Assembly: GCA_031370785.1 (NCBI GenBank)
Contig: JANMQY010000012.1
Location: 1-14,745, forward strand
Origin: Candidatus Eiseniibacteriota bacterium
GTDB taxonomy: Bacteria > Eisenbacteria > RBG-16-71-46
DNA: 14,745 bases
Direction of reading: 5' to 3'
A program made the position numbers and the translations under genes. Below the pieces are notes generated by a model. It was not told the DNA's origin, did no database searches, and worked only from the letters and a program-made list of their open reading frames with translations. Of the stretch, positions 2,932 to 14,745 are shown in pieces. Every line of letters starts with the position of its first letter. Within the stretch, counting starts at the first letter, position 1.

Positions 2932-3171
2932 ATGGCAGCCGCAAAGATTTCGGTGATGAACAACGGGTCGCTGCGCGTCGAAGGCGACTTCGAGATCGTG
3001 GATCAGGACGGCCGTCCGTTCGGCCTCGCGGGGCGGGGGAAAGTGTCCCTGTGTCGGTGCGGGCAGTCGAGCAACAAGCCGTTCTGCGACGGAACGCACA
3101 AGACCTGCGGCTTCGAGTCCACGCTCGTCGCCTTCGATCTGCCGGCGCCGGCCCCGAAGCCCGCGCCTTGA
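2932..3171 (+). CDS. CDGSH iron-sulfur domain protein (79 aa, single 2Fe-2S CDGSH motif)
   Basis: CRCGQSSNKPFCDGTH fits C-x-C-x2-S-x3-P-x-C-D-G-(S/A/T)-H, with a typical N-terminal NGSLRVEG strand. ATG at 2932 is preceded by GGGGGA. The ORF-track extension to 2692 is probably non-coding. Confidence 0.94.
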   Translation: MAAAKISVMNNGSLRVEGDFEIVDQDGRPFGLAGRGKVSLCRCGQSSNKPFCDGTHKTCGFESTLVAFDLPAPAPKPAP

Positions 3172-11898: not shown

Positions 11899-13599
11899 AT
11901 GTCAGGTGCGAGAAGGCTGGTCCTGCTTCCCATCGTCCTCGCAACTCTCGGCTCTGTAGCTCCAGCGGCATGGGCGGCGTGGCCGAGCGACCCCAACGTC
12001 AACGTGCCGCTCTGTACCGCCACCAACTTCCAGTTCAACCCCATGATCGCATCGGACGGCGCGGGTGGGGCGATCGTCACCTGGGTCGACCGCACTAGCT
12101 ACGACATCTACGTCCAACGTGTGAACGCCGCCGGGGTGCCGCAATGGACCGCCAACGGCGTGGCGCTCTGCACCGCTGCCAACGAGCAGTCCACCCCCAC
12201 GATTGCATCGGACGGCGCGGGCGGCGCGATCGTCACCTGGCAGGACAACCGCAGCGGCACGAACAACGACATCTATGCCCAGCGCGTGAACGCGGCCGGG
12301 GTGCCGCAGTGGACCGCCGACGGCGTGGCGCTCTGCACCGCCGCCAACTTTCAGTACAACCCCACGATTGCATCGGACGGTGCGGGCGGCGCCATCGTCA
12401 CCTGGCAGGACCAACGCGTCCCCGACTACCACATCTATGCTCAGCGGGTGAACGCGGCGGGGGTGCCGCAGTGGACCGCCGACGGCGTGGCGCTCTGCAC
12501 CGCAGCCATCGGCCAGCGGGGCCCCACAATCGTATCGGACCTGGAGGGCGGGGCGGTCGTCACCTGGCGGGACTACCGCAGCACCACCGGCGCCGATATC
12601 TACGCCCAGCGGGTGAACCCGGCGGGGGTGCCACAGTGGACCGCCAACGGTGTGGCGCTCTGCACCGCCGCGAGCAACCAGTACAACCCCACGATCGCAT
12701 CGGACGGCACGGGCGGGGCGATCGTCACCTGGGAGGACTTCCGCAGCGGCACGTACTACGACATCTACGCTCAGCGGGTGAACGCGGCGGGAGTGCCGCA
12801 GTGGCTCGCCAACGGTGTGGCGCTCTGTACTGCGGCGAACAACCAGCAGCTCCCCACGATCGCATCGGACGGCGCGGGCGGCGCGTTCGTCACCTGGTAC
12901 GACATCCGCACCGGAACCAACTACGACATCTATACCCAGCGGGTGAGCGCGGCGGGCGTGCCGCAATGGACCGCCGATGGTTTGGAGCTTTGCACTTCCG
13001 CCAACGAGCAGTCCCACCCCACGATCGCATCGGACGGCACGGGCGGGGCGATCGTCACCTGGCAGGATTACCGCGACGGCATCACTGACATCTACGCCCA
13101 GCGCGTGAACGCGGCGGGAGTGCCGCAGTGGACCGGCAACGGCGTGGTTCTCTGCAGCGCCGCCAGCGCCCAGTACAACCCCACGATCACATCGGACGGC
13201 GCGGGCGGGGCGATCGTCACCTGGGAGGACTTCCGCGGCGGCACGTACTACGACATCTACGCGCAGAATGTGAATCCCGACGGGACGCTCGGTGGAACCG
13301 TCGTATCGGTCCCGCCCTTGTCCATCGCGACGAGCTTCGCGTTACACAGCGTTCAGCCCAACCCCAGTTTCGGCGAGTTCCGCGTCTCTTTCTCATTGGT
13401 GGACGGCACGCCGGCGATGCTGGAACTGTATGACCTCACAGGACGCCGCATCGAGTCGCAATCGGTCGGCGGTTTCGGTCCCGGAACGCACGTCACGTCG
13501 CTGACGCCGCGCGTGGCCTCGTTGCCTCCGGGGATCTACTGCGTGAGCCTCACGCAGGGCAGTCACCGCGCGCTCAGCAAGGTTGCCATCGTGCGATAG
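11899..13599 (+). CDS. Secreted repeat protein (eight 54-55-aa repeats, probable beta-propeller) with a T9SS/Por-type C-terminal sorting-like domain
   Basis: RBS GGAGG at 11888-11892 and a signal peptide ending AWA. Eight repeats with consensus WTANGVALCTAxxxQxxPTIASDGAGGAIVTWxDxRxxxxxDIYAQRVNAAGVPQ. The C-terminal ~95 aa read PNP..F.L....LELYDLTGRR...G.H...LPPGIY.V.L...K..VR. Confidence 0.92.
   Translation: MSGARRLVLLPIVLATLGSVAPAAWAAWPSDPNVNVPLCTATNFQFNPMIASDGAGGAIVTWVDRTSYDIYVQRVNAAGVPQWTANGVALCTAANEQSTPTIASDGAGGAIVTWQDNRSGTNNDIYAQRVNAAGVPQWTADGVALCTAANFQYNPTIASDGAGGAIVTWQDQRVPDYHIYAQRVNAAGVPQWTADGVALCTAAIGQRGPTIVSDLEGGAVVTWRDYRSTTGADIYAQRVNPAGVPQWTANGVALCTAASNQYNPTIASDGTGGAIVTWEDFRSGTYYDIYAQRVNAAGVPQWLANGVALCTAANNQQLPTIASDGAGGAFVTWYDIRTGTNYDIYTQRVSAAGVPQWTADGLELCTSANEQSHPTIASDGTGGAIVTWQDYRDGITDIYAQRVNAAGVPQWTGNGVVLCSAASAQYNPTITSDGAGGAIVTWEDFRGGTYYDIYAQNVNPDGTLGGTVVSVPPLSIATSFALHSVQPNPSFGEFRVSFSLVDGTPAMLELYDLTGRRIESQSVGGFGPGTHVTSLTPRVASLPPGIYCVSLTQGSHRALSKVAIVR
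11980..13290 (+). repeat. Eight tandem in-frame 162-165 bp repeats
   Basis: Trp codons starting each unit are at 11980, 12145, 12310, 12472, 12637, 12802, 12967 and 13129 (spacings 165, 165, 162, 165, 165, 165, 162). Nucleotide identity between units is high. Confidence 0.97.
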
Positions 13600-13623: not shown

Positions 13624-13655
13624 GGGACGAGGCGCCAGGTGCCTCGCCCTGTATT
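13624..13655 (+). terminator. Possible intrinsic terminator after the repeat protein gene
   Basis: GGG-A-CGAGGCGC-CAG-GTGCCTCG-CCC hairpin (one G-U, one bulge) followed by a weak TGTATT tail. Confidence 0.5.
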
Positions 13656-13658
13656 AGG

Positions 13659-13667
13659 TGCTAGATT
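13659..13667 (+). promoter_or_regulatory. Candidate extended -10 promoter element for acnA
   Basis: TG-c-TAGATT ends 82 nt upstream of ATG 13750 and would place the TSS near 13674. Confidence 0.5.
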
Positions 13668-13674
13668 CCCAGTC

Positions 13675-13745
13675 GTTCCCGGGGACCCTGTGTGTCCCCC
13701 TTTCTCAACCGAGGGCCCTGTGTGCCCTCGCCACTGGAAAGGAAC
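13675..13745 (+). promoter_or_regulatory. Structured acnA 5' leader: two hairpins with identical CCTGTGT loops plus SD-pairing segments
   Basis: GGGGAC-CCTGTGT-GTCCCC (13681-13699) and CGAGGGC-CCTGTGT-GCCCTCG (13710-13730). CTTTC (13700-13704) is complementary to GAAAG (13737-13741), and GTTC (13675-13678) to GAAC (13742-13745). Confidence 0.7.
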
Positions 13746-13749
13746 CGTC

Positions 13750-14745
13750 ATGAACGCCTCCCGCCTGAACGATCCGTTCGGCGCGCGCGCCGCGCTCGCC
13801 ACTCCCGCCGGCAACCTCACCATCTACCGCCTCGACCGACTCGCCTCTTCGCTCGGCGTCTCGCTCGACTCGATTCCGTTCTCGATCCGTGTCCTGCTCG
13901 AGTCCGCGCTACGCAACTGCGACGGCTATCAGGTGAGCGAGGACGACGTGAAGCGGCTCGCGCGATGGAGCCCCACCGCCGAAGACATCGAAATCCCGTT
14001 CAAGCCCGCGCGCGTGATCCTCCAGGACTTCACCGGCGTCCCGTGCGTCGTGGATCTCGCCGCGATGCGTGACGCAGTCAAGCGCCTGGGCGCGGATCCC
14101 GCGAAGATCAATCCGCTGGTGCCGGTCGACCTCGTGATCGATCACTCGGTCCAGGTCGACCTGTTCGGCAGCGGGCTCGCGCTTGAAAAGAACGCCGAGA
14201 TCGAATTCGAGCGCAATCGCGAGCGGTACGAGTTCCTGCGCTGGGGGCAGAAGGCATTCCGGAACTTCCGCGTGGTTCCGCCCGCGACCGGCATCGTGCA
14301 TCAGGTGAACCTCGAGTATCTCGCGCAGGGCGTGATGACCGCGACCATCGGCGGCGAGAAGCTGGCATTCCCCGACTCGCTGGTGGGGACCGACTCGCAC
14401 ACCACCATGATCAACGGGCTGGGCGTGGTCGGATGGGGCGTCGGCGGTATCGAGGCCGAAGCGGTGATGCTTGGCCAGCCGCTGTTCATGGTCATGCCGC
14501 AGGTGGTCGGCTTCAAGTTGACCGGCACGCTGCGCGACGGCGTGACCGCGACCGACCTGGTGCTCACGGTCACGCAGATGCTGCGCAAACGGGGAGTGGT
14601 CGATAAGTTCGTCGAGTTCTATGGGCCGGGCCTCTCGGCGATGTCGGTCGCCGACCGAGCGACCATCGCGAACATGTCGCCCGAGTACGGCGCGACCATG
14701 GGCTACTTCCCGGTCGACGACGAAACGCTGCGCTATCTGGAGCGC
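13750..14745 (+). CDS. acnA: Aconitate hydratase A (AcnA/IRP family), 3'-truncated, absent from the ORF track because it runs off the window
   Basis: Manual translation from ATG 13750 (RBS AAAGGA at 13738-13743): [16 protein letters not shown]...[15 protein letters not shown]...[26 protein letters not shown]...[12 protein letters not shown]...[12 protein letters not shown]...[27 protein letters not shown]...[15 protein letters not shown]. The frame is open to base 14745. Confidence 0.98.

Follow-up and report, generated by a model that had tools for sequence, protein, structure and literature searches.

The leader of the aconitase gene acnA in a Candidatus Eisenbacteria genome carries two hairpins that present the same loop. 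Together they apparently form a cis-regulatory RNA that has not been described before and is restricted to a single AcnA clade of Ca. Eisenbacteria. The window, the whole stretch of 14,745 nt that was analyzed, ends within acnA. The predicted signals in the leader show the twin hairpins to lie between a −10-like box and the Shine-Dalgarno (SD) region. We lean toward reading them as a 5′ UTR translational operator that would be bound by apo-AcnA and give negative autoregulation when Fe-S clusters are short. The features of the locus are as follows.

13659 to 13667, + strand: predicted extended −10 element TG-n-TAGATT, containing a conserved TAnnnT hexamer; transcription start predicted at about 13674 to 13676
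13681 to 13699, + strand: hairpin 1, 5-bp stem GGGGA/UCCCC, apex C-C-CUGUGU-G, hexaloop at 13688 to 13693 (from sequence and covariation)
13700 to 13709, + strand: pyrimidine-rich linker, predicted weak anti-Shine-Dalgarno strand; 13700 to 13705 is predicted to pair with 13736 to 13741
13710 to 13730, + strand: hairpin 2, 6-bp stem CGAGGG/CCCUCG, apex C-C-CUGUGU-G, hexaloop at 13718 to 13723 (from sequence and covariation)
13736 to 13743, + strand: Shine-Dalgarno region GGAAAGGA, 5 nt past hairpin 2 and 6 nt before the start codon, conserved in the alignment
13750 to 14745, + strand: acnA, AcnA/IRP1-family aconitase, first 332 codons (PF00330); the gene continues on contig C59 of this genome

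Two Hairpins with One Apex

Hairpin 1 reads GGGGAC-CCUGUGU-GUCCCC and hairpin 2 reads CGAGGGC-CCUGUGU-GCCCUCG. They repeat with a period of 30 nt, and 19 nt separate hairpin 2 from the acnA ATG at 13750. An earlier note on this DNA had described these sequences and distances together with two compensatory differences between the stems, and re-reading the sequence bore out all of them. The note had also described an identical 7-nt loop closed by a C-G pair. The sequence identity stood, but the fixed 7-nt closing register is less certain, as the base two positions before the hexaloop (position −2) varies among relatives.

Apex statistics were taken from 64 hairpins of 32 leaders that were selected by protein, not by pattern. 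Position −2 is C in 60, A in 3, and U in 1 of these hairpins, while position −1 is C and the loop begins CUGUG in 64/64. The sixth loop base is U in 29, C in 24, A in 11, and G in none, and the base closing the apex is G in 63 and A in 1. Across these relatives, the apex therefore appears better written as N-C-[CUGUGH]-G than as a fixed 7-nt loop. The energy model favors a 7-nt loop closed by C(−2)-G over a bulge plus hexaloop by 3.2 kcal/mol, yet in the A(−2) variants only C(−1)-G can pair, so either closing register may apply. In either register, an unpaired or mismatched C lies directly beneath the hexaloop.

The loop probably folds as a C1-G5 pseudo-triloop that exposes UGU, with the unpaired C just below. 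Two observations point to this fold: the hexaloop CUGUGC forms a pseudo-triloop by NMR, according to the accessible text of PMC1636360, and the last base, which is never G, matches the iron-responsive element (IRE) rule and its base frequencies. Sixth-base frequencies for A/U/C/G are 0.17/0.45/0.38/0.00 in the element and 0.16/0.39/0.45/0.00 in 38 classic IREs, where the accessible text of PMC8466369 explains the missing G by the C-G cross-loop pair. The capacity of CUGUGU for C1-G5 pairing, proposed earlier, holds in that C and G occupy these positions in 64/64 hairpins. As neither base varies, we infer the pair itself. The never-G sixth base could also be explained if G is avoided there because it would pair with the invariant C beneath the loop.

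Stems Covary While the Apex Is Fixed

To collect orthologous leaders, 61 related genomes were searched with the AcnA fragment, and the best 30 loci were taken by protein score alone. Both hairpins were found in all 30 loci and in two further loci of family f1, giving 32/32 among these Ca. Eisenbacteria relatives. The earlier note had named loss of the loop or of the pairing upstream of orthologous acnA genes as grounds for abandoning the element; both are kept in all 32 leaders. It had also claimed covariation of the stems, which the alignment of the 30 orthologous leaders upheld. Pairing is present in 89% of the cells, and 41 cells are changed on both sides, a number reached by 0/500 shuffles. 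The covariation score is 0.316, against 0.093 for shuffled alignments and at most 0.134 in slid registers, figures inflated by kinship among the sequences, as the relatives are not independent. Hairpin 2 contains two heavily covarying pairs in which both sides changed in 16/30 and 12/30 sequences. RNAalifold recovers the same two helices from this alignment.

A larger pool of 103 leaders, partly selected by pattern and filtered for stems, was also compared. The innermost pair of hairpin 1 occurs there in all four Watson-Crick forms (AU 67, GC 19, CG 9, and UA 8; 103/103 leaders), and the hairpin period is 28 to 31 nt. In the five inner pairs of the pooled leaders, 18 G-U pairs stand against 5 A-C mismatches; the 32 protein-selected leaders give 3 versus 5, a comparison that is uninformative on the strand. 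Within the 3.44-Mb genome of the window, CCTGTGT occurs at 71 sites, and a Watson-Crick stem of at least 5 bp is formed only at these 2. The whole 181-nt region folds modestly better than its shuffles (z −1.64), so the proof of structure is comparative. This comparison confirms the twin hairpins as real and far from chance. It shows a pattern of change in which the stems appear selected for pairing rather than sequence and the apex for sequence.

The Leader between Promoter and Start Codon

The TAnnnT hexamer begins 18 to 21 nt before hairpin 1 in 24/32 leaders and at most 45 nt before it in 31/32, compared with 2 matches in 32 control windows. A strict consensus promoter scan of the window called no promoter. 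The position of the hexamer predicts a transcription start near 13675, which would place both hairpins inside a leader of about 75 nt. Against the concern raised beforehand, that transcription might start downstream of the hairpins, stand the −10-like hexamer upstream of hairpin 1 and the start predicted from it. Three RNA runs (shares 0.06 to 0.08) gave contigs of other organisms. The best match lies in a relative's 17-kb contig, which may be DNA; this contig aligns from 13658 onward and diverges before 13658. The RNA-run contigs give no support for leader transcription either way.

In the minimum-energy fold of the window's leader, the linker pairs with the SD region. The mean linker-SD pairing probability is 0.31, versus 0.16 for shuffled linkers, and it is higher in 38/56 leaders, with a pairing register that varies among leaders. 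The folding models give moderate support to the linker as a putative anti-Shine-Dalgarno strand. A three-way junction closed by 13666 to 13673 with 13733 to 13739 was considered unlikely, since its 5′ strand overlaps the predicted promoter.

Other features were seen around the leader. The word GCCGAT recurs about 10 to 16 nt upstream of the −10 box in many relatives and is absent from the window's leader; it is possibly a lineage-specific promoter element. Upstream, 11899 to 13599 encodes a 566-aa predicted secreted protein made of repeats of about 58 aa; a C-terminal sorting domain (PF18962) matches it weakly, below the cut-off. A GC-rich hairpin without a U tract follows the stop of this gene at 13628 to 13646. 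It is possibly the terminator of the secreted-protein gene and was not called by the strict scan.

The Element Occurs at a Single Gene

A covariance model of the element gave one strong match in the window's genome and 73 strong matches in 71/102 genomes of the order. Of these 73, 70 directly precede acnA (68 by coordinates and 2 by translation), and the other 3 are about 55 nt or less from a contig end. The relatives also gave 21 weak matches; 16 were examined and none was the element, being SD-like or chance matches. One weak match, G016:C186, is a perfect single hairpin on the strand opposite a trpA-like gene, at that gene's 3′ end. No strong match was found in 14 f1 genomes without an AcnA match, an absence limited by incomplete assemblies. 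One f1 genome without an AcnA match, G020, encodes a 751-aa aconitase (L199, C1:75000-78500) about 30% identical to AcnA, and no apex match was found upstream of it.

In a sample of 150 genomes drawn from the phylum, the strong matches outside f1 were in G038, G113, and G156. The G156 copy belongs to a second acnA, which sits on a contig of 2.6 kb and is possibly a contaminant. Among the genome-collection matches listed (119 loci), 37 have both stems and acnA, 1 has acnA and a weak second stem, 2 have stems with acnA undetected (one at a contig end and one a chance match), and 79 have neither stems nor acnA. Two records titled as other phyla carry AcnAs 79 to 81% identical to the window's. The metagenomes gave 75 matches: 62 before acnA (60 with both stems, 2 whose stem is imperfect), 3 truncated at a contig end, and 10 attributable to repeats or chance. 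No wide distribution of the element was found: the hairpin was seen in 0/32 outside acnA leaders, 0/8 leaders of family f3, and 0/4 class-level leaders.

The suggestion that the motif might be a dispersed genomic repeat was ruled out by scanning the genome for apex and stem and with the covariance model: 2/71 CCTGTGT sites have a stem, and there is one strong model match. A regulon in the window's genome was likewise rejected. Two other apex-plus-stem sites, C69:53851 and C73:64197, overlap with long open frames and have no SD and start behind them. The apex-plus-stem scan found no hairpin copy at 2944 to 3171 of the window, where a small CDGSH iron-sulfur protein (PF09360) adjoins a SURF1 gene. 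A scan of the genome for canonical IREs gave 1 site. In the genomes and metagenomes searched, the element was shown to occur only before acnA, as far as these model and pattern matches reach.

Family f2, a sister family, carries a single hairpin before acnA in 3/3 genomes (L036, L050, and L076). Its stem has a bulged U or C, one position closer to the loop than the IRE C8 position, and the SD forms the lower stem of the hairpin in 2/3 folds. The earlier suggestion of a dimeric binder, taken as obligately dimeric, is weakened by this single-hairpin form. A different conserved hairpin, with a GCCGC stem and a GCCC(U) loop, precedes the f2 element (n = 3); pairing between its loop and the 5′ arm of the CUGUGU hairpin is possible.

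The Element Travels with acnA

The AcnAs that bear the element form one clade, with a FastTree support of 0.999 (54 genomes) and an SH-aLRT of 98 (55 rows; 19 genomes left out). G038 belongs to family f3, while its acnA and leader are of f1 type, fall in the clade, and include the element. The gene beside the G038 acnA shares 79 to 82% identity with the orthologues that six f3 genomes have at this locus and no more than 69% with f1. The acnA of G113, a genome of another order, is likewise in the clade, and its hairpins covary. In the f1 genome G004, acnA falls outside the clade and lacks the element. By these phylogenies, the distribution of the element is shown to match the AcnA gene tree and not the species tree, and the element apparently co-travels with acnA. 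Apo-AcnA suggests itself as the binder, because autoregulation would predict just such a lone target moving together with the gene. The never-G sixth base and the travel with the acnA gene would both fit autoregulation. Single target and co-transfer fit any self-contained element or universally present binder as well.

The downstream gene is acnA, as first proposed. The window's open reading frame matches PF00330 (E 1e-97), and contig C59 overlaps residues 286 to 332 at 100% and runs 618 residues to the stop. Compared with human IRP1, the full-length orthologue in G032 reaches 1069 bits, and compared with mitochondrial aconitase 186, which places the gene in the AcnA/IRP1 type. The other marks of this type were also found: PF00330 and PF00694, a length of about 900 aa, similarity to IRP1, and RNA-contact residues. 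IRP1 contact positions were taken from the accessible text of PMC4184891 and mapped through the G032/IRP1 alignment. R269, S681, P682, R713, R780, D781, and W782 are kept, and K379 is present as R. The S371 equivalent is A in nearly all AcnAs, and most have non-basic residues at the positions equivalent to R688 and R732. AcnAs without the element keep the same contact residues, several of which are active-site residues. From the alignment, the kept residues would show capacity, not specificity. Eight positions mark the element-bearing clade within the order; one of them is an IRP1-like Asp beside R713. An AcnA signature for RNA binding was dropped because this best position recurs in 4 outside, element-free AcnAs.

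In the window genome (G000, 100% complete), neither Fur nor Rrf2/IscR was found, with controls positive in 13/14 and 14/14 genomes. Both are patchy in the order, including f1 (29/70 genomes for Fur and 27/70 for Rrf2), so the element would be independent of them. The window genome has two DtxR/MntR-family genes, and CsrA is present.

Many relatives carry an insert of about 520 aa in AcnA (L071:203-4459 of G023, L072, L073, and L078), probably an intein. It starts with C-I, ends with H-N, and lies inside the cluster-binding motif, the first residue after it being the third Fe-S ligand Cys. Its PF14890 match (E 5e-8) is just under the cut-off. A split AcnA match was counted by eye in roughly two dozen genomes; the window's acnA has no insert. 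No paper title on such an AcnA insert was found in the literature as far as it was accessible.

Comparison with Known RNAs

No Rfam covariance model matched the window at E ≤ 5, and in 6 related loci at E ≤ 10 there were 4 chance matches, none at leader positions. The Rfam search proposed at the outset therefore returned no family for the leader. No published description of the element was found in the full-text literature, which included few subscription papers and lay apart from the supplement of a 224-motif survey (PMC5737381). Covariation, the model scan, and the lack of an Rfam match support the original idea of a conserved, covarying, acnA-specific cis element.

The hairpins had been called IRE-like, and this description stood in part when compared with the features set out by Volz 2021 (PMC8466369). 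The loop resembles that of an IRE: the bases of the cross-loop pair at positions 14 and 18 are C and G in 64/64 hairpins, and the bulged N19, which is non-G and preferably U or C in IREs, is G in 0/64. The stem and the center of the loop depart from it. The AGU triplet at 15 to 17 is UGU in 64/64. At the place of the bulged C8, 6 nt 5′ of the loop, hairpin 1 has G and hairpin 2 has A. The canonical register of the five-pair upper helix forms 3/5 and 4/5 pairs. The non-canonical geometry that the earlier note had pointed out, with no C8 and no five-pair upper helix, was accordingly borne out. In the accessible texts, A15U deregulates human ferritin IREs (PMC8466369), and SIREs accepts loop motif 3, CUGUG(C/U), only together with C8 (PMC12230718).

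The metazoan IRE (RF00037 and RF02253; IRP1/IRP2), especially the 5′ IRE of mitochondrial aconitase, shares with the element a C-N-G-U-G-H hexaloop capable of C1-G5 pairing, a sixth base that is never G, a place in the 5′ UTR near the start, and an available IRP1-family protein. The element differs in having U at 15, no C8 bulge five pairs below the loop, a tandem rather than single arrangement near the start, a bacterial host, no Rfam match, and as its one target the gene of its presumed binder. Judged from its sequence, it would act like a 5′ IRE in the proposed reading but is not an IRE.

Bacterial apo-aconitase sites are another close parallel, alike in the presumed sensor and in aconitase autoregulation by iron status. 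According to the accessible reports, they include the own 3′ UTR of E. coli AcnB, the citZ leader, qoxD, feuAB, and gerE for B. subtilis CitB, sites of S. aureus CitB, and cwlM for M. tuberculosis AcnA. In those reports they are single-species stem-loops, and the E. coli autoregulation is positive and acts via the 3′ UTR. The element, unlike these sites, is a 5′ tandem that covaries across about 70 genomes. The riboswitch called guanidine-II (mini-ykkC) has two short stem-loops, whose conserved loops are identical, and a linker, according to the accessible texts of PMC5558903 and PMC5486947, and shares this outline and a translational position with the element. Its loops are identical tetraloops, kissing upon ligand binding, whereas those of the element are 6 to 7 nt and different in sequence, a single-hairpin form exists, and the element has no Rfam match and no known ligand. 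The apical loop of hepatitis B virus epsilon, CUGUGC, is the same hexaloop, and its accessible description gives, from NMR, a UGU triloop with a C-G closing pair and a bulged last base. Context and binder are unrelated, so epsilon is a structural analogue comparable in loop fold alone.

Proposed Mechanism and Alternatives

In the translational operator that we favor, AcnA lacking its cluster would bind its own leader when iron-sulfur supply is short and turn off its own synthesis. Apo-AcnA would recognize the loop G and U via the R379 and R269 equivalents. Binding at hairpin 2 would block the 30S subunit, either directly or by stabilizing the weak linker-SD helix, and the second hairpin may add a second contact or cooperativity. 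Cluster loading of AcnA would release the RNA. Repression is suggested by the hairpins adjoining the SD, and apo-AcnA as the binder also by the mRNA binding of apo-aconitases in other bacteria. Such binding is described in the accessible texts on E. coli (PMC4150767), S. aureus (PMC11317140), B. subtilis (PMC7430163), mycobacteria (PMC7527780), and Streptomyces (PMC3912134). The mRNAs bound in E. coli, B. subtilis, and S. aureus are their own or those of TCA genes, and mycobacterial apo-AcnA binding near a start lowers the protein (PMC7527780). Against this operator, a single hairpin cannot give the two-point contact of IRP1, as it has no C8 and no 5-bp upper helix.

A tentative reading, possible but well short of probable, is that one apo-aconitase spans the two hairpins, holding one by its UGU pseudo-triloop and the other by its unpaired C. 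These two contacts would replace the loop and C8 of a single IRE, and in f2 the bulged pyrimidine of the single hairpin would supply the second contact. Gene and operator would then form a self-contained, transferable iron-sensing cassette in a lineage often without Fur and IscR.

The alternatives differ in what would read the hairpins. An operator for another RNA-binding protein, possibly a dimer with one loop per subunit and responding to another signal, strikes us as rather doubtful. Identical loops at a tight period of 28 to 31 nt would suit a two-site binder, the apex departs from the needs of IRP1, and no AcnA surface signature convincingly splits element-bearing from element-free enzymes. 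However, no second target was found in the genome or its relatives, the element persists with the gene in two foreign backgrounds (G038 and G113), and a single hairpin suffices in all three f2 genomes, which weighs against a two-site dimer. CsrA is at hand, but its target, GGA, differs from a CUGUGH loop. ANTAR proteins bind dual hairpins whose hexaloops have A1 and G4; the element's loop begins with C, not A, and no PF03861 match was found, though no control genome matched either. A protein could be dispensed with altogether in a minimal riboswitch of the guanidine-II kind, whose loops would dock on citrate, cis-aconitate, or Fe2+ and so free or hide the SD. Its outline of two stem-loops with identical loops and a linker is the same, the linker can pair with the SD, and the lack of need for a trans factor fits co-transfer. 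We nevertheless judge it unlikely: the loops lack Watson-Crick self-complementarity, f2 makes do with one hairpin, and the element is seen only at acnA, whereas riboswitches usually serve several genes of one pathway.

Hairpins that passively stabilize the mRNA 5′ end or set a fixed, unregulated translation level would agree with GC-rich hairpins that begin about 6 nt past the predicted start. They would leave unexplained why eight apex bases are near invariant while the stems turn over, and why the apex is duplicated, and this makes the passive role very improbable. We give hardly any credence to a DNA operator made of direct repeats three helical turns apart or of palindromes, read for example by a DtxR-family factor. 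The 29 to 31 bp period and the two DtxR/MntR-family genes speak for it, but the arms change sequence completely yet stay complementary, which double-stranded recognition would not select. The excess of G-U pairs over A-C mismatches in the pooled set also stands against it.

Significance

RNA binding by bacterial aconitases has been known since 1999. According to the accessible text of a review, B. subtilis CitB also bound a negative control RNA, and in that of PMC8466369 prokaryotic IRE-like sequences are confidently excluded from the IRE family. The acnA leader described here offers a candidate site marked by evolution: over 100 distinct leaders show strongly covarying stems and an invariant apex, at a single target gene. 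Its binding rules, its structure, and its use as a portable iron-responsive translational switch can be tested directly in E. coli. Even with a binder other than aconitase, the element would be a regulatory RNA not described before, serving a central gene of the TCA cycle as a new protein operator or as a minimal riboswitch. If apo-AcnA binds it, the leader would be a well-defined bacterial test case for an IRE-like switch, and if one apo-aconitase does span both hairpins, it would be a bacterial counterpart of the IRE/IRP switch with a new geometry.
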